A stretch of 64,000 nucleotides of DNA. It comes from Acidobacteriota bacterium. Lineage in GTDB: Bacteria > Acidobacteriota > Terriglobia > Terriglobales > Acidobacteriaceae. This document shows positions 8,332 through 53,052 of this stretch, piece by piece. Numbering within the stretch: position 1 is the first letter of the stretch; the number at the start of each line of letters is the position of its first letter. Under the pieces are notes generated by a model that ran no database searches, had not been told where the DNA came from, and saw only the letters and a list, made by a program, of their open reading frames with translations. The translations under genes and the position numbers were made by a program. The stretch lies in NCBI GenBank assembly GCA_021810625.1, contig JAJZIJ010000004.1, forward strand, positions 9,569 to 73,568. The letters are read 5' to 3'.

Positions 8332-9369
8332 CTATGTCGGTAGCGTCGATGCAGCGCGCGTGGGCCGTATCTTTTTGCGGAGACTGGCGGCAATCTGCGC
8401 GCCGTGGAAACGCCCATTCTCAATGAATATCTCATTCGTGCGCATCCCGGCCACGATCACGCCTGCAAGGTAAATTCCAGGGATGTTACTCTCCAGCGTC
8501 TCCGGGTTGCAGACAGGCGTTCGATCTGCGCCTTCCAGTTGAATGCCGAGCGACTCCAGAAAAGAAAAATCCGGATGGTAGCCGGTCATGGCAAAGACAA
8601 ATTGATTTGGCAGTATGCGTTCACCCTGTGGCGTGGACAGATGCGCGGTGTCGGGAGTAATCGCGGTTACGGTCGAATGGAAGTACGCGGCGATCTCGTT
8701 GTTGCGGATGCGATTCTCAATGTCGGGGAGAATCCAGTATTTGACGTGCTTGTGCATGGCCGCGTCGCGATGCGCCAGCGTAACGCGCGCGCCGTGTCGC
8801 CAGAGTTCCAGCGCCGCAATCGCGGCGGAGTTTTTTCCGCCGATGACCAGCACATCCTGGTTGAAGTAGGGATGCGGGTCGGTGTAGTAGTGCATCACCT
8901 TGGGCAAATCCTCGCCGGGAATGTGCAGCAGATTCGGCAGATCGTAGTATCCCGTGGCGAGGATGAGCTTGCGCGCATGATATGTGTGTGCGCGGCCAAA
9001 GGTGTCGGTGGCGTGGACGACGAAAGCGCCATCGACGCCGGTGATGCGGTCAACATTTTGATAGGCGCGAACATCGAGCCGATAGTGCGCGGCGACCTTG
9101 CGGTAATACTCCAGCGCCTCCTGTCGGTTGGGCTTGGGGTTGGGGCTGCTGAAGGGAATGTTGCCGATTTCGAGCAGCTCCGGCGTGGTGAAGAAGGTCA
9201 TGTGCGCGGGGTAATGAAAGAGCGAGTTGCACAGGCAGCCTTTATCGAGCAGCGCCACGCGAAAGCCCTCGCGCTGCGCGTCAATGGCGCAGGCCAAACC
9301 GGTGGGGCCAGCTCCGATAACGAGAACATCGACCGTGTTGGGCGCGGCGGCGGGCGCAGGGTTGCTCAT
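8332..9369 (-). CDS. ypdA: YpdA-family FAD/NAD(P)-dependent disulfide reductase (putative bacillithiol disulfide reductase type)
   Basis: GxGxxG (VIGAGPTGLACA). Long stretches match my recollection of B. subtilis YpdA (HYPAHMTFFTT, LATGYYD, IPGEDLPKV, VIGGKNSA, FAMTGYHPD, NEIFIENGRFHG). Start at MSNPAP (9369). Confidence 0.85.
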   Translation of the reverse strand: MSNPAPAAAPNTVDVLVIGAGPTGLACAIDAQREGFRVALLDKGCLCNSLFHYPAHMTFFTTPELLEIGNIPFSSPNPKPNRQEALEYYRKVAAHYRLDVRAYQNVDRITGVDGAFVVHATDTFGRAHTYHARKLILATGYYDLPNLLHIPGEDLPKVMHYYTDPHPYFNQDVLVIGGKNSAAIAALELWRHGARVTLAHRDAAMHKHVKYWILPDIENRIRNNEIAAYFHSTVTAITPDTAHLSTPQGERILPNQFVFAMTGYHPDFSFLESLGIQLEGADRTPVCNPETLESNIPGIYLAGVIVAGMRTNEIFIENGRFHGAQIAASLRKKIRPTRAASTLPT

Positions 9370-9432
9370 GCTCTTATTTAAGCAGAGCGGGGATGGATGT
9401 GGATTTACGCGCAATCACAAAAACCCTGCGCG

Positions 9433-9469
9433 CCCCACATGCGCCGCGTTCTTCGCGGCGCATGTGGGG
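9433..9469. repeat. REP-A palindromic element copy 1
   Basis: CCCCACATGCGCCGCG-TTCTT-CGCGGCGCATGTGGGG, a perfect 16-bp stem. It lies just downstream of the Kelch gene stop; on the minus strand a T-run follows 9 nt later. Confidence 0.9.
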
Positions 9470-9487
9470 CGGGTCTTGCGTTCTACA

Positions 9488-11035
9488 CTACGGCTGGTAA
9501 CGCCACAGGTCGTTGAGATCGCCCTGCGCCGTGGTCGAGTCTGGGCCGTAGCCCCCAAAGAGCCAGAGATTGCCGCTGCCATCCATCCAACCGACGGATC
9601 CGCTCCGGCCTCCGGGAACATTGCTGGCAGCAGGGGTTCCCAGCGTGCCGTAAACACCGGATTGGCCGCTGTTTGCGCCCAGCGTGTTGCTGCCGCTCAT
9701 CCACGTCCATTCCTTGCTCGTGGGATTAAACACCCAGAGGTCGTTGAGATAGCCCTGCGCCCCGGTCGAATCGACACCGGAACCTCCAAAGAGCCAGAGA
9801 TTGCCGCTGCCATCTATCCAACTGACGGATCCGCCCCGGCCTCCGGGAACATTGCTGGCGGCGGCAGTGCCCAGCGTGCCGTAAACACCGGATTGGCCGC
9901 CGTTTGCGCCCAGCGTGCTGCTGCCGCTCATCCATGTCCATTCCTTGCTCGTGGGATTAAACACCCAGAGGTCGTTGAGAAGGCCCTGCGCCAGAAGGCC
10001 CCCCGCCCCGGTCGAGTCTGGGCCGAAGCCCCCAAAGAGCCAGAGATTGCCACTGCCGTCTGTCCAACTGACAGAACCATATCTGCCTCCGGGAACATTG
10101 CTGGCGGCAGGGCTACCCAGCATGCCGTAAACACTGGGCTGACCACCGTGCGAACCCAGCGTGCTGCTGCCGCTCATCCATGTCCATTCCTTGCTCGTGG
10201 GATTAAACACCCAGAGGTCGTTGAGATAGCCCGGTGTCCCCGTCGAGTCTTGGCCGTAGCCTCCAAAGAGCCAGAGATTGCCGCTGCCATCCATCCAACC
10301 GACGGATTCGCCCCGGCCTCCGGGAACATTGCTGGCAGCAGGGGTTCCCAGCATGCCGTAAACACCGGGCTGACCACCGTGCGAACCCAGCGTGCTGCTG
10401 CCGCTCATCCATGTCCATTCCTTGCTCGTGGGATTGAACACCCACAGGTCGTTGAGATTGCCCTGCGCCCCGGCGATCGAGTCAAAGCCCCCAAAGAGCC
10501 AGAGATTGCCGCTGCCATCTATCCAACTGACGGATCCGCCCCGGCCTCCGGGAACATTGCTGGCAGCAGGGGTTCCCAGCGTGCCGTAAACACCGGATTG
10601 GCCGCCGTTTGCGCCCAGCGTGCTGCTGCCGCTCATCCATGTCCATTCCTTGCTCGTGGGATTAAACACCCAGAGGTCGTTGAGATAGCCCTGCGCCCCG
10701 GTCGAGTCAAAGCCGTAGCCCCCAAAGAGCCAGAGATTGCCACTGCCATCCCTCCAACTGACGGATCCGGCACGGCCTCCGGGAACATTGCCGACAGCCG
10801 GGCTGCCCAGCGTACCGTAAACACCGGGTTGGCCGCCGTTTGCGCCCACCGTGTTGCTGCCGCTCATCCATGTCCACGGTTTGGCGGCTCCGGGCGTGGA
10901 ACCTGCGCTCCCGCCACAGGCGGTGAGAAACAAAGGAATGGAGAGAGCGAAGATCGCAGGTAGGCTCAACAGCGCGCGCAGCAACCCTTGAAGGAACGTG
11001 TAAAGCAGGGGACAAGCAGGAGTTGCTGTTTTCAT
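9488..11035 (-). CDS. Kelch-repeat beta-propeller lipoprotein
   Basis: 515 aa. Signal peptide with lipobox (FLTACGG), then about 7 units of about 77-82 aa (NDLWVFNPTSKEWTWMSGSSTLG...GSGNLWLFGG) with the Kelch signature. Confidence 0.85.
   Translation of the reverse strand: MKTATPACPLLYTFLQGLLRALLSLPAIFALSIPLFLTACGGSAGSTPGAAKPWTWMSGSNTVGANGGQPGVYGTLGSPAVGNVPGGRAGSVSWRDGSGNLWLFGGYGFDSTGAQGYLNDLWVFNPTSKEWTWMSGSSTLGANGGQSGVYGTLGTPAASNVPGGRGGSVSWIDGSGNLWLFGGFDSIAGAQGNLNDLWVFNPTSKEWTWMSGSSTLGSHGGQPGVYGMLGTPAASNVPGGRGESVGWMDGSGNLWLFGGYGQDSTGTPGYLNDLWVFNPTSKEWTWMSGSSTLGSHGGQPSVYGMLGSPAASNVPGGRYGSVSWTDGSGNLWLFGGFGPDSTGAGGLLAQGLLNDLWVFNPTSKEWTWMSGSSTLGANGGQSGVYGTLGTAAASNVPGGRGGSVSWIDGSGNLWLFGGSGVDSTGAQGYLNDLWVFNPTSKEWTWMSGSNTLGANSGQSGVYGTLGTPAASNVPGGRSGSVGWMDGSGNLWLFGGYGPDSTTAQGDLNDLWRYQP
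9540..10900. repeat. intragenic tandem repeats (period about 228-246 bp) encoding the Kelch blades
   Basis: The motif TGCCGCTCATCCA[T/C]GTCCATTCCTTGCTCGTGGGATT recurs at 9691, 9922, 10168, 10399 and 10627, with a variant at 10858. Confidence 0.9.
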
Positions 11036-11122
11036 AGACTCTCCGCGTCACTTGGAAATGATATTGTATGCAACCGACAGACTGCATACGTATACCACAA
11101 GCCACGCCTTTGAATCTATCCC

Positions 11123-11248
11123 TCAAACCATCTTCAGCAGAATTGACTGCGCGGCGCGCAGCGGATTGGCCGCCTGCGTGATCGGTCTGCCGACGACCAG
11201 ATAGCTGGCTCCAGCAGCGATGGCCGCTCCGGGCGCAGGGTTGCTCAT
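11123..11248 (-). pseudogene. chimeric scar: ypdA start codon plus 5 codons fused in frame to the last ~35 codons of pyrF
   Basis: My translation is MSNPAPGAAIAAGASYLVVGRPITQAANPLRAAQSILLKMV*. Compare the ypdA N-terminus MSNPAPAAAP and the pyrF C-terminus PGAAITAGASYLVVGRPITQAANPLRAAQSILLEM. Confidence 0.8.
11129..11235. repeat. duplicated fragment of the pyrF 3' coding end (copy of 15824-15930)
   Basis: Hand alignment gives 107 bp with 5 mismatches. Confidence 0.9.
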
Positions 11249-11293
11249 GCTCTTAATTTAAGCAGAGCGGAGATGGATGTGGATTTGCGCGCA
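11231..11293. repeat. duplicated fragment of the ypdA start plus upstream leader (copy of 9352-9413)
   Basis: Hand alignment gives about 62 bp with 2 mismatches and 1 single-base indel. It abuts and overlaps the pyrF fragment at the shared GGGCG. Confidence 0.9.
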
Positions 11294-11341
11294 CAACTTT
11301 TCACGCACAACCTCTTGAAAGATCACAGGCACCGCACTCCC

Positions 11342-13558
11342 TTACGGGTGGCTCGTTGTGGTTCGGAGGACGGCCACGGAACCTGCGGGTAGATTCACGG
11401 TTGCCAGCGTATGACCGTTATTCTGTGTCACGGGAACAGACGCGCCTGTGATTACGTCTGTCACCGCGTATGCGCCTCTAAAACTGATGACTGCCTGCCC
11501 GGTATTTCCCCAGTTGGAGAGGATGGCACCCGCGCCATCCGGCAGTGTCATGCCGCGGAAAAGTATCTTTCTGGAACCTTGCAGCATGGAGACTTTCTGG
11601 CTGGCCACTTCCGCAAGAGCGGGCGCTACAATCCACTGCTGCACGATCGGATTCAATCTTCTCGCGTAAGCCAGCGTGACCGCCGATTCAAAATAGTAGA
11701 CCTGCCCCATGCCAAAGGTATGTTTCACTTCAAAAGGCTTGCCACTTTTTGTTCGCATTACAACTTCCGCGCCCTTCATCTCCAGTGGGAGTTTCCAGAG
11801 TTCTCCGCCCTGCTCATTCTGGCTGGTCACGGAATACGGATTTGCCGCTTGCACGGGATAGATATCCGAGGCCTCCACGCCGAAAAGATCGGTCAAGCCT
11901 CCTGGGACGGTGGGGCGAATCTCTCCCGTGCCGTTCTTCCATGCTGTCAGCCCATCGGCCCAGAGCGTTCCTCCCTGGCTCACATAGGTTTTCAGCGCAG
12001 CGAGCGCCTTGTCGTCCAGCGCATAGGAGTCTGGAATGTAGAGAACTTTGAAGTTTTGCAACGCTCCCTGTTTCAGTTGGTCGAGATCGACGAACTCTGT
12101 CGGAATATGGGCACGGTGCAGCGCGAGATAACAGCCCCGCAGCGAATCCGCGACTTCGTCTTCTCGATGCTGGGTGCGACCATCGAGGCTGATAAGAATC
12201 TCCGCCTCGCGGTTGTACAGGATGGCGACTTTTGCCTCCTGTGGCTGCGCCTTAGCCAGCCAGGGATTTTTCCGCAAGGTGTCTGCCACAGCCTTGACTG
12301 CGGGGATGCGATTGGAGGGTATTCCGTCCAGACTGGCCAAGCTCCACTCCCCGGCCTCCGTCCCGCCCACTCTTGGATTCCAAAGCCAGAAGATGACAGC
12401 GCGGCTGCCTGCGCCGTAGGAGTCCCATATCCAGCGCGTCAGATCGCCCGGCGTTGTGTATAGAGGAAATTTGCCCGTGAACATTGTCGGGCCACTCTGC
12501 AATTCCGTCACCCAGAATGGCTTGCGCGGCGCAACTTCGCTGGCATCCGCGATCTGATCAAGACGGTAGGAGTAGAGTTCTCCATAATCACTCTCCGGTG
12601 TCGCGGGGGGAAAGACCCAGGCTGCGTGCATGGAAACGCCAAGAATATCTGGAACTTGTTTTTCTTTCCATATATCCTGGCCAACGGCATCGCCGATGGG
12701 GCTGGTCACATTAAAATGCGTCGGGTGGTTGGGATCAATTGCTTCCACCTGCTGCTTTACCCAGATCAGTTGCTGAATCAGGTTATCGACCTTGAAATTA
12801 TCCCAGTCGATCAGCGCGTGGTAATCCGTCCAATAGGATGTCTGTTGTAGCGAGGTTATCTTTACGTCGGAGAATTTTTTCAATGGCTGAAACCAATGCT
12901 GGTTCAGCGTATTCACGGTGCCATACTTGGCTTGTAGCCAGTCGCCAAAGGCATGAAACGTGGTCGGCTCCGTGTCGTACTTGGTCGGCTCATTCATCAA
13001 CAGCCAAACGCCCTGGGCAGGATTGTTCTTATATCTCCCCACAACTTTTTTTAGATAGATCGCAGATGCGGCGCGATTCGCGGGGGCATTCAAATTGACG
13101 AGATTGTGATAGAACGGCGTTTTATCGGCCCAGCCGGGTGGATCTTCTGGACACAAGGTGGCGACGATTTTTATGCCGTTTTTCGCGGCTGCGTTGTAGA
13201 TCCAGTCATATCCTTCAAAATTCCAAACTCCCGGAACCCGTTCGACATCATCCCAAATAACGAATATCCGAACCAGCGTCAGTCCCGTTGCGTGCATCAA
13301 CTGAAATTGCTTGTCTACGGAGGCCTGGGTATCCGCGCGATTCAGGAAAAACTCAGAGCCAATGCGAAGCTGTTCTGTAAGTTCATTGAGTTTTGCCTGA
13401 CGAGCCACATTCGTGGGCGCAGTGTTTTGGGCGCTCGCCAGTACCCCGAAAAAGATGACCGCGAGCAGCACGCACTGTTGCAACCTGTGTCGGGAAATCC
13501 CTACATGCGACTGCGTTGCTTGATATCGAAATTCCAACACTTTTTGTTGCTGGTACAT
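11342..13558 (-). CDS. glycoside hydrolase family 42 beta-galactosidase, with predicted signal peptide
   Basis: TIM-barrel region with LLMNEPT (acid/base) and WVTELQSG (nucleophile)-like motifs, followed by a GH42M-like domain (KVAILYNREAE). Start at MYQQQK (ATG ending at 13558). Hydrophobic N-terminal segment LLAVIFFGVLASAQ. Confidence 0.8.
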   Translation of the reverse strand: MYQQQKVLEFRYQATQSHVGISRHRLQQCVLLAVIFFGVLASAQNTAPTNVARQAKLNELTEQLRIGSEFFLNRADTQASVDKQFQLMHATGLTLVRIFVIWDDVERVPGVWNFEGYDWIYNAAAKNGIKIVATLCPEDPPGWADKTPFYHNLVNLNAPANRAASAIYLKKVVGRYKNNPAQGVWLLMNEPTKYDTEPTTFHAFGDWLQAKYGTVNTLNQHWFQPLKKFSDVKITSLQQTSYWTDYHALIDWDNFKVDNLIQQLIWVKQQVEAIDPNHPTHFNVTSPIGDAVGQDIWKEKQVPDILGVSMHAAWVFPPATPESDYGELYSYRLDQIADASEVAPRKPFWVTELQSGPTMFTGKFPLYTTPGDLTRWIWDSYGAGSRAVIFWLWNPRVGGTEAGEWSLASLDGIPSNRIPAVKAVADTLRKNPWLAKAQPQEAKVAILYNREAEILISLDGRTQHREDEVADSLRGCYLALHRAHIPTEFVDLDQLKQGALQNFKVLYIPDSYALDDKALAALKTYVSQGGTLWADGLTAWKNGTGEIRPTVPGGLTDLFGVEASDIYPVQAANPYSVTSQNEQGGELWKLPLEMKGAEVVMRTKSGKPFEVKHTFGMGQVYYFESAVTLAYARRLNPIVQQWIVAPALAEVASQKVSMLQGSRKILFRGMTLPDGAGAILSNWGNTGQAVISFRGAYAVTDVITGASVPVTQNNGHTLATVNLPAGSVAVLRTTTSHP

Positions 13559-13660
13559 AGTTTGCTTCCCACCCGTGGTTTTGTAGCTCGTGAAGAAATT
13601 CGGAGAGAAATCACAGCTCCCTCCACTTCGTTCTCTGTCGTGAACCCCGCTTAGGATAGC

Positions 13661-13775
13661 CCCCCTGGGGTTCCCCGGCAACCTTAGACTCGCTCACCGC
13701 GCTAGTTCTTGCGCGCGTTCTCCATTTCCAGCAGAATTGACTGTGCGGCGCACAGCGGATTGGCCGCCTACGTGA
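13661..13775. repeat. duplicated fragment of the pyrF 3' end plus 33 bp downstream (copy of 15764-15877)
   Basis: About 113 bp at roughly 90% identity by hand alignment. REP-A follows immediately. Confidence 0.85.
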
Positions 13776-13785
13776 ACCCTATGCG

Positions 13786-13822
13786 CCCCACATACGCCGC
13801 GTTCTTCGCGGCGCATGTGGGG
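13786..13822. repeat. REP-A palindromic element copy 2
   Basis: CCCCACATACGCCGCG-TTCTT-CGCGGCGCATGTGGGG. It shares the 5' flank AACCCT..GCG with copy 1. Confidence 0.9.
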
Positions 13823-13875
13823 CGGATTCCGAGATTCTCAAGTCTCTAAAAATCGGAACCTAGAGTACCCGGCCT

Positions 13876-14583
13876 TCAAAATCCGAAATCGATGATGTCG
13901 CCACATTTCCGACATTGTGCACTTCCATACATTCCCGCTATGTATTCGAAGAGCTGCCCTTCGCTCATATCATCCGTATCCCACTCAATAGACTCCAGAG
14001 AATTGACTGCCTGACAGGATGAACACTCACGCGGCATATTCCCATCGCCACCAAATTCTTCGTCCATTTTGGTTTGCATCCTTGCTGGATATAGCAGGGT
14101 ACCGCTGATAAGATTCTGAAAAAGTCGATGGGTGTGTGACACGTCGGATCGACAAGCTGCCTTAATTTTGTCATCACTTAATTCGTTCATCTTCCGGCCA
14201 TCGGTGTGTTTCTTCTCGCCAAAATTGCAATTTACAGCCACATTCAGGCTCACTCGAAACCCCGCCTTCGCGCTCATGATTTCGTGCATATCGATATGCT
14301 GGCCCTTGCGGGGTACACGGCCTTTCAGTCCATAGTGTTTTCTGAGAACCAAAAGATCAAAACACTTGCCGTTGAAACTGACAACCTCATCCGCAGACTG
14401 CAATAGCCTTATCAATTTGGTTGCGTTGCGCTGAGTGAAATACTTGTACTCTTGGCGCGATTCATCGAAGATACACGCCACGCGCATCTTTGGCGCATGC
14501 TTTGTTCTTGACTTTGTCGTCGTAGCCCTTCTGAACGCTTCTGAGAATGGTACGGTTTCAATGTCAAACACAATTCGTTTCAT
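13876..14583 (-). CDS. DEDD-type (RNase H-like fold) 3'-5' exonuclease with C-terminal 4-Cys zinc ribbon
   Basis: 235 aa from MKRIVFDIET. ExoI FDIET (D7, E9), ExoII SFNGKCFDLLVL (N71, D76), ExoIII-like CRSDVSHTH (D147, H150). CSSC...CRKC (C187/C190/C224/C227). AT-richer than its neighbours. Confidence 0.6.
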   Translation of the reverse strand: MKRIVFDIETVPFSEAFRRATTTKSRTKHAPKMRVACIFDESRQEYKYFTQRNATKLIRLLQSADEVVSFNGKCFDLLVLRKHYGLKGRVPRKGQHIDMHEIMSAKAGFRVSLNVAVNCNFGEKKHTDGRKMNELSDDKIKAACRSDVSHTHRLFQNLISGTLLYPARMQTKMDEEFGGDGNMPRECSSCQAVNSLESIEWDTDDMSEGQLFEYIAGMYGSAQCRKCGDIIDFGF

Positions 14584-14686
14584 GCAGCATACCTCCACGA
14601 GATTTATGATCCGGCCCAAAACAAAAATAGCAAAAGAGACTGGCAGGATATTCACGGAAGAATGTCACCTGTAAAATTAGAGACGA

Positions 14687-15628
14687 ATGATGACCCCGAA
14701 ACAACTTGGAATTGAACTGCGGCATCGCGGCTATGACACCACTGAACGGAAACTGCGGGACTGGCGAGATAAGGGATTGCTGCCGCCGCTGATGTGCTGC
14801 GGGCGAGGTCGTGGTTCAGGCGTGCGGCATTACTGGAAGGATGCAGGGGTTATAGATCAAGCCATAACCGTTCATGATTTGCTTTCCAGACGTGCGCGCT
14901 CCGAAGGCGCACTTTTGGGAACGTGGTTTGCTGGTTATGCGATGGATGTAGAGAAAGTTCGGAAAGCATGGCTTTCGTCGGTGGATCGCATAAAAAAACG
15001 AGTATTCAGAAATGCTTCTTCAAAGGAACAACGAGAGGATAGTCTTAGCGACTTGTCCCGCGATCTTGCCAAGAAGATGGCTCCTGTTGTCAAGAAGATG
15101 GCTCCTGACACTGATCTCGATTGGGAAAAGTTGGAGGCGCTCTTATCGGAGATATTGAACGCATATTTCGATTCGTCCTCCCCTATCTCTATTGATGATC
15201 AGGTTGTCGATACAGCGCGAAAGATTTTTGACAGGAAAGCCAGCACTTTGGAAGGATCGGAGCTTGTGACCATAGCGGGTTCAGAAAAGATACTCAAATT
15301 TGTACAGAAGAATCTGTCTCTGGATGCCATGCGGCGGTTGATTTTATCAGCAACGGTGGGGGAATTTGAGGTAGCGCATCGGCGTTGGCAATCCGCAATC
15401 CGAATCATCGGGTTATGGTGTAGTGCTGAAATTGACAGAGCGGAAAATCCAGCGGAATTGGTGCGGGAAGGAAGGCTGCTGTTGGGTGTCTTTGGTGCTC
15501 CGTGTATTTTCGCGCTACTGCGCCTTGGAAAAGCCGAAAAAGGGCCGGAGGTAGACTCCTGGCTTGATAGGATCGAGTTGTTTGTGAGAAATCAGCCCAA
15601 TGTCTGGGGATTACAAAACCCCACATGA
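14687..15628 (+). CDS. hypothetical protein with N-terminal HTH-like (MerR/excisionase-style) segment and helical body
   Basis: 313 aa, divergent from the exonuclease gene. The N-terminus (TPKQLGIELRHRGYDTTERKLRDWRDKGLLPP) resembles a DNA-binding HTH. Contains an internal KKMAPVVKKMAPD duplication. No family recognised. Confidence 0.45.
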   Translation: MMTPKQLGIELRHRGYDTTERKLRDWRDKGLLPPLMCCGRGRGSGVRHYWKDAGVIDQAITVHDLLSRRARSEGALLGTWFAGYAMDVEKVRKAWLSSVDRIKKRVFRNASSKEQREDSLSDLSRDLAKKMAPVVKKMAPDTDLDWEKLEALLSEILNAYFDSSSPISIDDQVVDTARKIFDRKASTLEGSELVTIAGSEKILKFVQKNLSLDAMRRLILSATVGEFEVAHRRWQSAIRIIGLWCSAEIDRAENPAELVREGRLLLGVFGAPCIFALLRLGKAEKGPEVDSWLDRIELFVRNQPNVWGLQNPT

Positions 15629-15796
15629 GCCGCAAAGACCGCAGCGCATGTAGGGCACCTGACATGTCAAATGGAACTCCAGAGAATAATGGCGGAGAAT
15701 ATGAAGCGAAGTTTCTCTGGATTCTTCTCTTCGTCCGCTGCGGCGAACTCCGCCCAGAATGATCCCACTGGGGTTCCCCGGCAACCTTAGACTCAC

Positions 15797-16582
15797 TCAC
15801 CGCGCCGACTTCTGCGCGCTCTCCATCTCCAGCAGAATTGACTGCGCGGCGCGCAGCGGATTGGCCGCCTGCGTGATCGGTCTGCCGACGACCAGATAGC
15901 TGGCTCCGGCAGTGATGGCTGCGCCGGGCGTGGCCAGACGTTTTTGATCCTGCGCTGCGCTACCTGCCGGACGAATTCCCGGCGCTACCAGCAGCGGCTT
16001 GTTCCCCAAATTCTGGCGGAGCATGGCCACCTCTTCCGGGGAGCAGACCAGCCCCGCCACGCCGCAGGCCATCGCCATCCTGCCCAGCCGCAGGACTTGT
16101 TCGGCAGGAGATTGAGCAACTCCGATGGCCGCCAGTTCCGCCGCATCCATGCTGGTCAGCACGGTGACAGCCAGCAGTTGTGGGGGATTTCCCCCCTGCG
16201 CGGCAATCTCCGATGCCGCCTCCACCGCTGCGCGCAGCATCGCCGGGCCGCCTGCGGCGTGGAGCGTCAGCAGGGAAGCTCCCGCCTGCGCCGCCGAACG
16301 CACCGCTCCAGCGACCGTGTTGGGAATGTCGTGGAGCTTGAGATCGAGAAAGATGGAGAAGCCGCGCCCCTTCAACTCGGCGACGATGGGGTTTCCAGCG
16401 GCCAGATAGAGTTCCAGCCCAACCTTGACCCAGCGGCAACTTCCGGCCAGTTGGTCAGCCAGCGCCAGCGCTTCAGCGGCGGAGGGGAAATCCAGCGCGA
16501 CGATCAGGGAATCACTCGGCGAGCGACCCCCGGCTGGGCGCAGGGAGGCATCGAAGGTTTCGGAGGGTTTGGGGACACTCAT
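15797..16582 (-). CDS. pyrF: orotidine 5'-phosphate decarboxylase
   Basis: LIVALDF, VKVGLELY, IFLDLKLHDIPNTV and YLVVGRPI motifs. Start at MSVPKP (ATG ending at 16582); the longer ORF upstream looks non-coding. Confidence 0.9.
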   Translation of the reverse strand: MSVPKPSETFDASLRPAGGRSPSDSLIVALDFPSAAEALALADQLAGSCRWVKVGLELYLAAGNPIVAELKGRGFSIFLDLKLHDIPNTVAGAVRSAAQAGASLLTLHAAGGPAMLRAAVEAASEIAAQGGNPPQLLAVTVLTSMDAAELAAIGVAQSPAEQVLRLGRMAMACGVAGLVCSPEEVAMLRQNLGNKPLLVAPGIRPAGSAAQDQKRLATPGAAITAGASYLVVGRPITQAANPLRAAQSILLEMESAQKSAR

Positions 16583-18393: not shown

Positions 18394-18537
18394 ATGAACG
18401 TACCCGGATGGAGGTTGCACCCGCTGAAGGGAAAACTCACGGGCCGTTGGTCGGTGAATGTGGATGGGAATTGGCGATTGACCTTTGCCTTCGACAGGCC
18501 AGATGCCATTCTCGTGGACTATCAGGATTATCATTAG
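18394..18537 (+). pseudogene. higB: truncated HigB-type (RelE/ParE superfamily) toxin remnant, C-terminal half only
   Basis: 47 codons, translated by hand: MNVPGWRLHPLKGKLTGRWSVNVDGNWRLTFAFDRPDAILVDYQDYH*. This matches only the C-terminal half of ~92-aa HigB killers. The region that should encode the N-terminal half is occupied by the thiD 3' end. Confidence 0.65.
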
Positions 18538-18547
18538 GAGCAAATCT

Positions 18548-18826
18548 ATGCGCATGTACAACCCAGCCCATCCCGGAGAGGTTTTACGGGAGCAGATTGG
18601 CACAATGTCGGTGACAAGGTTCGCCGCGCATCTTGGCGTGTCTCGTGTCACGCTCTCGCGATTGTTAAACGGCAATGCAGGGATTTCGGCACCAATGGCG
18701 CTGAAATTATCGGAGGCGCTGGGGACATCTCCAGAATTGTGGCTCAATATGCAGACTCAGTTTGATTTGTGGAATGCCTCGCGAGAGAAGCGAAAAAAAG
18801 TCTCGCGTCTGCGCCTTGCCGCGTGA
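18548..18826 (+). CDS. higA: HigA-type antitoxin (XRE-family HTH)
   Basis: 92 aa from MRMYNPAHPGEVLRE. HTH segment FAAHLGVSRVTLSRLLNG and the typical LWLNMQTQFDLW tail. Confidence 0.85.
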   Translation: MRMYNPAHPGEVLREQIGTMSVTRFAAHLGVSRVTLSRLLNGNAGISAPMALKLSEALGTSPELWLNMQTQFDLWNASREKRKKVSRLRLAA

Positions 18827-18925
18827 GAGTGACTTCTCTCTCCGCCCACCCGACGCTGGATCATTTTTGGGAGAAGAAATGAACGCGCCGCCGGGAACGG
18901 AAAGCACGTCGGGAACGGAGAGCAG

Positions 18926-18949
18926 GAGAGAGAGAGAGAGAGAGAGAGA
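18926..18949. repeat. (GA)12 dinucleotide microsatellite
   Basis: Uninterrupted GAGAGA... run of 24 nt between higA and the convergent Sel1 gene. Confidence 0.95.
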
Positions 18950-18977
18950 AGAAAATCAGCGCGGGGATTGTTTCTTT

Positions 18978-19703
18978 TCAGGGCATGTCTGGCGATTGCG
19001 GAGCATGCGATTCAAACCACTTCTTTGCCCGCTCCTGCACCTGGAATAGTTCGGCGGGTGTCAGGCGCTTGGCGACCTCGTCCCGAAGGGTATCCACGTC
19101 TTCCTGCTTGAGATTTCCGACCCTGCCGCTGGATGCCGCCAAGTCGTACCAGAAATACGCTTGCGCGTTATCCTGCGGCACGCCGTGGCCCTGGTCGTAC
19201 AAGGTGCCAAGGTTGTATTGAGCCTCGGCAACTCCCTGTTTAGCAGCCTTGCGCCACCAGGCCACTGCTCGCGTCTCGTTTTGCGGCACGCCGTGGCCTT
19301 GATGGTACATCCAGCCAAGTCTGGCTTGAGCCTCGGCAAGTCCCTGTCTGGCGGCCTTGCGATACCAGATCGCTGCCAGCGCCTCGTCTCGCGACACGCC
19401 CTCGCCAAGGTCGTACACCAGACCGAGGTTGTACTGCGCATACACGTCCCCCTGCCTGGCCGCCCTGCGGAACCAGATGGCCGCCCACACATAATCCCGC
19501 ATGACGAGGTACGCAAGCCCAAGCTCACACTGCGCGCCGGAGTCCCCGCGTTTGGCGGCCTCGCGAATTTTCATGAGAGATGACGTTACGAGAGATGGCG
19601 TTTTTTGAAGCGAACCGGGTCGTTCCTCTCCAAGCAGCGTCGTGGAGGATTGGCAGATAACGCACAGCAGAAGGGCAGTCTCAACAAGAGATGGTAGACG
19701 CAT
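18978..19703 (-). CDS. Sel1-repeat (SLR/TPR-like) exported protein
   Basis: 241 aa. Signal peptide followed by about 5 units of A-x-YNLG-x-Y-x-G-x-GV-x-D-x3-A-x-WYRKAA. Confidence 0.9.
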   Translation of the reverse strand: MRLPSLVETALLLCVICQSSTTLLGEERPGSLQKTPSLVTSSLMKIREAAKRGDSGAQCELGLAYLVMRDYVWAAIWFRRAARQGDVYAQYNLGLVYDLGEGVSRDEALAAIWYRKAARQGLAEAQARLGWMYHQGHGVPQNETRAVAWWRKAAKQGVAEAQYNLGTLYDQGHGVPQDNAQAYFWYDLAASSGRVGNLKQEDVDTLRDEVAKRLTPAELFQVQERAKKWFESHAPQSPDMP

Positions 19704-42159: not shown

Positions 42160-42194
42160 GCTGAATTTACCCTGTGACCCGGACTCGCCGGATG

Positions 42195-42230
42195 CCCCAC
42201 ATGCGCCGCGTTTTTTGCGGCGCATGTGGG
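42195..42230. repeat. REP-A palindromic element copy 3
   Basis: CCCCACATGCGCCGCG-TTTTT-TGCGGCGCATGTGGG. Confidence 0.85.
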
Positions 42231-52948: not shown

Positions 52949-53052
52949 CTGCACAAGTACCGAGCGTTCCCTCAGCGGCTAAAGCCGCATTGCAATGCTT
53001 GGACTTACGGCGGGACTAAAGTCCCGCCCCTTCAAAACGCTGACTTGTGCAG
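52949..53052. repeat. 104-bp element with 10-bp perfect terminal inverted repeats and two internal hairpins
   Basis: CTGCACAAGT (52949-52958) and ACTTGTGCAG (53043-53052). Internal hairpins GCGGCT-AA-AGCCGC (52975-52988) and GGCGGGAC-TAAA-GTCCCGCC (53009-53028). Sits between convergent genes. Confidence 0.85.

Follow-up and report, generated by a model that had tools for sequence, protein, structure and literature searches.

The stretch of DNA analysed here, referred to as the window, comprises 64,000 nt of an Acidobacteriota bacterium of the family Acidobacteriaceae (assembly GCA_021810625.1, contig JAJZIJ010000004.1, positions 9,569-73,568), whose closest public relatives, according to a comparison of the YpdA protein, are uncultured Acidobacteriaceae known as metagenome-assembled genomes (MAGs). 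It contains an interval between the genes ypdA (the near flank) and pyrF (the far flank) in which three gene modules are stacked: a Kelch-repeat lipoprotein gene (module A), a gene for a glycoside hydrolase of family GH42 (module B) and a pair of genes of low GC content (module C). An earlier note on this DNA had described these modules as unrelated, and family searches upheld the identities of the genes. The modules are separated by copies of the interval's own flanks, at the seams J1, between the Kelch and the GH42 gene, and J2, between the GH42 gene and module C. The pyrF-ypdA interval is a strain-variable hotspot of gene gain in one Acidobacteriaceae species, and the stack was very probably formed by illegitimate joining of alternative alleles that already existed. 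Table 1 provides an overview of the features.

Table 1. Features of the ypdA-pyrF interval and its repeats, with positions in the window.
Feature	Position	Strand	Description
ypdA, intact near flank	8332-9369	-	YpdA-family putative bacillithiol disulfide reductase; TIGR04018 461.8 bits vs cut-off 339.9; PF13738
ypdA leader, 44 nt	9370-9413	-	Source of the J1 leader copy
REP1 hairpin	9422-9472	.	15 nt past the Kelch stop
Module A, Kelch-repeat lipoprotein gene	9488-11035	-	Pfam Kelch families; lipobox LFLTAC; GC 0.625
Kelch upstream region and private pyrF tail "c" (..LLKMV*)	11036-11127	-	Continuous with intact pyrF in contig L171
J1 chimeric open reading frame, 41 aa	11123-11248	-	YpdA residues 1-6 fused in frame to the PyrF C-terminus; by-product of J1
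J1 pyrF' fragment	11128-11235	-	Orphaned 3' end of a pyrF allele (from -107); match to 15823-15930
J1 ypdA' start (about 20 nt) and leader copy	11230-11293	-	Match to 9351-9413
Module B, secreted GH42-family glycoside hydrolase, 738 aa	11342-13558	-	PF02449 (GH42), PF08532 (GH42M), signal peptide; GC 0.543
J2 copy	13621-13775	-	Last ~77 nt of pyrF with ancestral-type tail (..ENARKN*) and downstream sequence D'; upstream of GH42
REP2 hairpin	13775-13825	.	94% to REP1; J2 join exactly at its edge
Module C gene 1, 235 aa	13876-14583	-	RNase-H-like / PolB-exo-like putative 3'-5' exonuclease; PF13482 (RNase_H_2) 29.8 bits, PF10108 23.9 bits
Module C gene 2, orphan protein, 313 aa	14687-15628	+	Divergent from the exonuclease gene; no Pfam family at E <= 0.1
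REP3, degenerate	15619-15658	.	In opposite orientation to REP1 and REP2; matches REP1 at 87% on the other strand; overlaps the stop of the 313-aa gene
Source of both pyrF-derived copies	15724-15930	-	pyrF 3' end (15797-15930) and downstream sequence D (15724-15796)
pyrF, intact far flank	15797-16582	-	Orotidine-5'-phosphate decarboxylase; PF00215 208.9 bits; protein P0121
Fourth REP	42194-42230	.	Without the AACCCT flank common to REP1 and REP2

The coordinates of the repeats were obtained by a self-BLAST of the window together with a repeat search, which reproduced the flank copies at J1 claimed in the earlier note. There, the pyrF' fragment matches its source over 108 nt, ungapped and with 5 mismatches (95%, E = 1.7e-45), the ypdA' start and leader match theirs over 64 nt (95%, a single 1-nt indel, E = 1.7e-23), and the two joined pieces have in common the 6 bp CGGGCG at 11230-11235 (CGCCCG in gene orientation), the microhomology that had been proposed. 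The open reading frame created by this join is annotated as a gene, with a weak OMPdecase match, in the contig L082 (L numbers denote the contigs compared here). The second copy of the pyrF 3' end, at J2, is likewise present, although it is longer than the earlier note gave: positions 13626-13775 match 15729-15876 over 151 nt (83%, 2 gaps, E = 4.6e-40) and the repeat search extends the match to 13621, so that the copy spans the final 77 nt of pyrF plus about 75-100 nt 3' of the gene. The J2 stub and the adjoining hairpin overlap by the single base 13775. Read in plus orientation, the junctions have the permuted order of far flank followed by near flank already pointed out, which at J1 is the pyrF 3' end followed by the ypdA 5' end, and with 6 bp (J1) and 1 bp (J2) of microhomology both joins are illegitimate. 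The pyrF stubs begin at different points, -107 at J1 and -76 at J2, and have different partners, ypdA' and a REP hairpin, and judging by these end-points and partners the joins do not appear to be site-specific. Further copies of either flank were found nowhere else in the 64-kb window.

The interval also bears out the statement that cargo accumulated here without a visible integrase, since the Pfam calls, which cover every gene up to 10 kb away on either side, include no integrase or transposase family; the cargo proteins carry Kelch, GH42 or RNase_H_2 domains or none. A self-comparison revealed no terminal inverted repeats or target duplications around the modules, with the exception of the REP2/REP3 pair. 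Cargo borne by a transposon, an insertion sequence (IS) or a miniature inverted-repeat transposable element was therefore rejected, as terminal inverted repeats (TIRs), target duplications and a transposase are all lacking, in contrast to the true IS found in the GH42 gene of other strains (see below). A promoter and terminator scan of 9300-16000 gave counts no higher than in shuffled sequence.

The hairpins belong to a family of repetitive extragenic palindromic (REP) elements with the core CCCCACATGCGCCGCG-loop-CGCGGCGCATGTGGGG and four copies in the 64 kb; the arms of the family have 6 matches in the window, while 0.08 are expected by chance. Three of the copies sit just 3' of gene stops, and REPs are ordinarily located after the 3' ends of genes. 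REP2 matches REP1 over 51 nt (94%, E = 1.6e-17), in agreement with the earlier note as far as the hairpin itself is concerned. The common flank on which the note had also relied is short, 6 nt to one side of the hairpin and about 3 nt to the other, and the REP at J2 may represent the ypdA-proximal flank on the basis of these about 9 additional common bases. REP3 lies in inverted orientation 1.8 kb from REP2, and module C is therefore bracketed by REPs; in a unit mobilised by REP/RAYT (REPIN-like), the two inverted REPs would stand close together and the genome would have a RAYT gene.

There are 13 public contigs that encode the identical YpdA protein, and the interval is covered by five independent assemblies (the NCBI MAGs GCA_027385675.1, GCA_027385695.1 and GCA_027385635.1, JGI 3300033990 and ENA ERZ27237009), four of which contain the full three-module stack and one of which (L085) contains the GH42-J1-Kelch part plus J2. 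They are 98.8-99.9% identical to the window at the nucleotide level and have the same junctions, and the sole structural difference among them is the number of ~231-bp repeats in the Kelch gene. In the window this gene contains six such tandem repeats (77 aa each, 9516-10982, 64-86% identity); across independent assemblies it is called at 203, 285, 438 or 515 aa, with several contigs stopping within it, which reflects either real strain variation or collapse in short-read assembly. Contigs of this species often stop a few hundred bases past pyrF, inside the Kelch gene or at the stubs, as the repeats of the locus break the assemblies. Together with the fact that every source is a metagenome assembly, this might suggest a chimera in which the assembler concatenated co-existing single-cargo strains. 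A mis-join in an assembly graph requires a shared k-mer, however, and with no more than 6 bp (J1) and 1 bp (J2) in common between the two sides, an assembler cannot make these junctions from single-cargo strains; in addition, the junctions recur in at least five assemblies, which differ in sample and pipeline (NCBI MAGs, JGI, ENA), and J1 is also found in L186. A chimera is thus hardly credible, and the stack is real and no assembly artefact.

The contigs of the members of the PyrF 90% cluster were retrieved. These proteins are nearly identical apart from the last few residues, which read ..LEMESAQKSAR in the window and ..LEMENAQKSAR, ..LEMENARTS, ..LEMVGSGSI or ..LLKMV elsewhere; the last of these (PyrF variant P0127) is exactly what the J1 stub encodes. 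The alleles share pyrF with its upstream genes and ypdA with its downstream genes at 94-99.9% nucleotide identity over kilobases, and between them the same interval occurs in different states: empty, GH42, GH42 and Kelch, module C with GH42 and Kelch, Kelch following pyrF, and the two further pyrF-proximal sequences of L172/173 and L180. The empty site belongs to L001, a sister species with 86-92% nucleotide identity, in which 38 bp lie between the pyrF stop and the ypdA ATG and in which homology to the window stops at 15819 and 9402; the ATG-proximal ~30 nt of the ypdA leader are conserved there as well. A two-module allele is represented by L186, in which an intact pyrF is followed by GH42, J1 and Kelch without module C and without J2. 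Its pyrF is continuous with the sequence that makes up the J2 copy in the window. Over 316 nt, its J1 agrees with that of the window in every base, and between 13390 and 10890 it departs from the window at 0-1 of every 100 nt. One sample, ERZ27237420, yielded both this allele and that of L172.

Single-cargo versions of the interval, whose existence in relatives the earlier note had considered, were found for GH42, on two contigs, and for Kelch next to an intact pyrF. In L174-179, the intact pyrF is followed by D' and the 5' part of the GH42 gene (93.6% over 747 nt, window 13775-13030), whereas L181-185 run from the equivalent of window position 13034 past the GH42 stop and, with a 48-nt spacer and a leader as in the window, on to a ypdA of full length, without J1 and without Kelch. 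Both halves were obtained from ERZ27237452, ERZ27237460 and ERZ27237515 (the samples of L175, L177 and L179) and are separated by an IS5-like element with a TA target at about 13030 and the TIR GATAGTGTCGTCACGAGAT, the insertion of which explains why these contigs break at ~13030. The element (L175 5960-6105 / L181 1-133) interrupts the GH42 gene, and the C-terminus of its transposase reads ..GWRGIATRYAKRADSFLAAAQIKCLMLWINIS*. YpdA has 352 aa in these GH42-only strains (L181 1924-2982) and 345 aa in the window type, due to a 21-nt insertion directly after the start (MSDPALSAAPTRAQAAPN.. vs MSNPAPAAAPN..), adjoining the point where J1 formed. In L171, the intact pyrF runs unbroken into the J1 fragment sequence, tail c and the start of Kelch: positions 1289-1512 correspond to window 11235-11012 (98.7% over 224 nt, ungapped) and the remainder of pyrF precedes them. 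The other end of a Kelch allele is present in L188, where Kelch, REP1, the leader and ypdA follow one another at 96.4% identity to the window.

The remaining contigs contribute less. L170 stops 110 bp past pyrF, L187 contains module C at 100% identity with its ends in the pyrF-stub repeat and in REP2, and L189 derives from another species with a different upstream gene. In L180, the sequence that replaces the pyrF tail (1206-1274) resembles window 52968-53036 (81% over 69 nt), with hairpins of the GGCTAAAGCC type, and may represent a second short dispersed repeat family. A genome scan with YpdA found pyrF adjoining ypdA only in L001; the other 79 loci have no pyrF within 10 kb and are for this reason uninformative on the interval. 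The top match of a metagenome scan with PyrF was 66% identical, so that no close relative was obtained from it. A HigB-like toxin gene is located beside an HTH_31 gene some 2 kb upstream of pyrF (roughly window 18500-19500), with a lone TrbI/VirB10-like gene and a Sel1 gene just beyond it. The HigB-like gene is full length in L173 (7524-7802), truncated to 47 aa in L174-176 (L174 8046-8189, L175 2565-2708) and missing from the gene calls of L172 and of the window-type strains; this site is another small strain-variable spot.

The alleles also carry information on the history of the stack. J1 is base-identical in L186 and in the window and thus arose once. Of the 108 positions of the J1 stub, 4 depart from the species consensus: two show the states of the outgroup L001, one corresponds to the marker of the tail-c allele that is intact in L171 and one is a private C to T change. 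By these markers, the stub belonged to a distinct, older pyrF allele, of which it is the orphaned end, and was not recently copied from the resident gene. The J2 stub (13722-13775) has 4 private changes in 54 nt, all of them from GC to AT (C to T or G to A), as expected of an unselected remnant, and D and D' are only about 77-83% identical. The tail and D of the window after ..GAGATGG (15724-15822) are homologous to L172 and, over about 50 nt, also to L170, whose PyrF is 85% identical, and it follows that D is ancestral flank and not cargo. That L001 preserves the pristine ancestral state is doubtful, because it lacks D and has a novel PyrF tail, while L170 and L172 share D; judging from these sequences, its empty state is probably a secondary deletion.

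L186 might be taken for a derivative of the three-module allele from which module C was deleted via the pyrF copies. This was rejected on account of its pyrF 3' end, which shows 9 differences from the consensus without sharing any private change of the J2 stub. As L186 is not a simple deletion product, the parsimonious order is that GH42 and Kelch were combined first, at J1, and that module C was added later on the pyrF side, at J2. The most plausible sequence of gains would accordingly place Kelch, next to ypdA, as the oldest module, followed by GH42 and by module C, next to pyrF, as the newest. The GC content declines towards pyrF, from Kelch through GH42 (Table 1) to 0.483 in module C (13826-15619) in a window of 0.572, which fits this order.

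Regarding the cargo itself, the GH42 gene is of two-part composition (GC 0.503 in the 5' 1 kb and 0.576 in the 3' 1.2 kb) and may be a mosaic. The 313-aa protein of module C had been labelled as an HTH protein in the earlier note, a label that does not hold, as its top match is only MerR_1 at E = 0.11; a search of 5.8 billion proteins found just 6 homologs of it (25-100% identity), it has no plasmid match, and its gene carries a perfect-register 21-nt tandem duplication at 15066-15107. Searches with PADLOC, NCBIfam and against phages gave no match for the exonuclease. An origin of module C as part of a defence system or as phage or plasmid DNA was consequently rejected.

Taken together, the allele of the window is best explained as a concatemer of three alleles that would have been assembled in two additive steps. 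In each step, DNA of a strain with another allele would enter the cell, and the incoming linear fragment would recombine homologously in a conserved flank, most simply in pyrF and the genes upstream of it or, alternatively, in ypdA and the genes downstream. The other end of the fragment would then be joined illegitimately to the resident copy at a position slightly inside the flank, using 6 bp at J1 and 1 bp at J2. A one-sided homology combined with an illegitimate join is the geometry of homology-facilitated illegitimate recombination (HFIR; PMC3240628), which in the present case would amount to an unequal crossover between non-identical alleles without the participation of a dedicated recombinase. 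As nothing is deleted in either step, an orphaned piece of flank is left at each seam, namely ypdA'::pyrF' at J1 and REP::pyrF' at J2. While the joining of pre-existing alleles is strongly favoured, the narrower claim that it was HFIR-like, with a one-sided homologous anchor and an illegitimate join, is advanced with less assurance, as somewhat the likelier course. Several points weigh against this explanation. HFIR, Campbell-type integration of a circle and unequal crossover end in an identical topology and are inseparable by sequence. The microhomology at J2 is just 1 bp as opposed to 6 bp at J1, and reported HFIR junctions have about 3-10 bp, usually GC-rich. Entry of DNA into the cell, by natural transformation or another route, is presupposed. 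All data are short-read metagenome contigs, the GH42-only allele is a reconstruction from two contigs split by the IS element, and neither a Kelch-only nor a module-C-only allele is contained complete in any contig. Furthermore, the J2 stub has decayed more (4 of 54 positions private) than the J1 stub (1 of 108), which is awkward if module C is the newest.

Among the other explanations, a Campbell-type integration shares most of these elements: a fragment reaching from the pyrF 3' end to inside ypdA, or past the REP, in the locus of another strain would be circularised at the microhomology, so that the circle-closing join is J1 or J2, and would then integrate by a single crossover. The permuted order of far flank and near flank matches such a circle junction exactly, and single-crossover integration of a circle with partial duplication of the locus was the main outcome in the E. 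coli HFIR assay (PMC3240628). However, a J1 circle would share with a resident of different cargo only 108 bp (pyrF) or 64 bp (leader and ypdA), a poor substrate compared with the kilobase anchors open to a linear fragment, and each step would need two events, circularisation and crossover, with no circular form observed, which makes this course unlikely. A tandem duplication in situ, by microhomology or template switch, of the interval or of the empty intergenic region, with cargo replaced or filled in later, would account for the classic short-junction topology of J1 and J2, in which a distal end is followed by a proximal start. REP elements and microhomologies are reportedly recurrent end-points of bacterial duplications. 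Yet the supposed units have no cargo in common, as Kelch, GH42 and module C are dissimilar and only the flank stubs repeat, and a later replacement would have to use a 64-bp arm rather than the long arm that erases the duplication. The copies of the flanks have moreover diverged with allele-specific markers (tail c and the outgroup states in J1, 77-83% identity between D and D'), and the precursor alleles occur separately in the population; we regard a duplication in situ as improbable. Of the two mechanisms offered in the earlier note, plain tandem duplication is accordingly disfavoured, since there is no common cargo and the precursor alleles are separate, whereas the joining of different alleles is favoured.

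A site-directed accretion by an unseen system, either an integrase acting in trans at an attachment (att) site in the pyrF 3' end or an insertion directed by REPs, RAYT or hairpins, draws its appeal from coinciding breakpoints. Tail c (L171/J1) and L180 leave the ancestral sequence at the same nucleotide, between GAGATGG and TT, and L001 departs from it some 6 nt later, after GAGATGGAGAG; J2 lies exactly at the edge of a REP, module C is bracketed by inverted REPs, and Kelch and module C each end at a REP. On the other hand, unlike att repeats, the pyrF stubs differ in start (-107, -76) and in partner, the modules have neither terminal repeats nor target duplications, the Pfam calls within 10 kb include no integrase or transposase family, L180 may just derive from the tail-c allele (ATGGTT in both), and REPs usually follow gene 3' ends anyway. 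Such a targeted system is very unlikely. There is an equally slim chance of a landing pad, that is an integrase-free process at REPs or hairpins (RAYT-like cleavage or replication stalling) that would repeatedly open the pyrF end and the REP edges at the breakpoint shared by two alleles, about 6 nt off in the third, and at J2 and the right ends of Kelch and module C. The coincidences of breakpoints and REPs could instead stem from common descent, from selection for an intact PyrF and from the usual placement of REPs. The joining of alternative alleles therefore remains the explanation we prefer.

This process resembles others that have been described. With HFIR (de Vries and Wackernagel, 2002; Prudhomme et al., 2002; Meier and Wackernagel, 2003, as cited in PMC5361080), it has in common the one-sided anchor in a conserved gene, at J1 a short GC-rich microhomology (CGCCCG), the additive capture of DNA and the lack of a dedicated recombinase. 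HFIR has been seen experimentally, in E. coli conjugation (PMC3240628), whereas here we infer it from natural alleles; the "foreign" DNA would be another allele of the same locus, so that both flanks contribute to a seam, and the 1 bp at J2 is unusually short. The nearest described pattern is that of the orphan-module arrays at polymorphic-toxin loci. For the loci of type VI secretion (T6SS), Rhs and contact-dependent growth inhibition (CDI), sequential displacement was proposed as their origin (Kirchberger et al., 2017, PMC5361080). There, new modules are placed beside a conserved 5' anchor and the older modules are shifted distally without an integrase, as would also hold for the interval, and in both cases other strains have simpler intermediates. 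Displaced Rhs and CDI modules retain a stub of the conserved gene. In contrast to these arrays, the anchor in our case would be the housekeeping gene pyrF, and the opposite flank contributes its start (ypdA') to the seam J1; since the cargo has nothing to do with toxins or immunity, it is not obvious what selection would retain displaced modules.

Integrase-free hotspots between core genes (Touchon et al., 2009, PMC2617782) and the "replacement" type of flexible genomic islands (Lopez-Perez et al., 2014, PMC4033161) likewise have different cargo per strain between the same two core genes, without a tRNA or an integrase, and alleles can spread via homologous recombination in the flanks. In those models, alleles are swapped by double homologous crossover, whereas in the pyrF-ypdA interval alleles were added and the illegitimate seams were preserved. 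Integrase-driven tandem accretion, of which phage-ICE (integrative and conjugative element) tandems (PMC13651849) and tycheposons (10.1101/2020.12.28.424599) are examples, also produces arrays of islands in which copies of a target gene's 3' end recur as direct repeats between the islands and the incoming DNA rebuilds the end of that gene. Compared with these, the interval has no integrase and no constant att core, and one of its seams holds the 5' end of the opposite gene, ypdA. Short-junction tandem duplications, finally, share with the interval the order of distal end and proximal start at a microhomology or beside a REP hairpin, but the "copies" here have different cargo and the stubs are marked by different alleles.

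In practical terms, the pyrF stubs and the 41-aa chimeric open reading frame should not be annotated as genes. Bacterial gene-gain hotspots lie mostly between core genes and lack an integrase (PMC2617782), and their growth is mostly inferred, as the junctions are usually erased. In the pyrF-ypdA interval, the seams are still legible and a stepwise series from an empty site via one and two to three modules is visible in one species and its sister species. Although the underlying processes are already known, the natural stepwise record in this Acidobacteriaceae population is unusually clear. The stubs of the flanks form direct repeats (108 nt at 95%, 151 nt at 83% and 64 nt at 95%) and could later delete modules, which would make the locus reversible. 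Outside of toxin and immunity loci, the interval thus provides a concrete case in which genes were gained additively, through the illegitimate joining of alternative alleles, and shows how foreign genes can build up in bacteria with no enzyme dedicated to their insertion.

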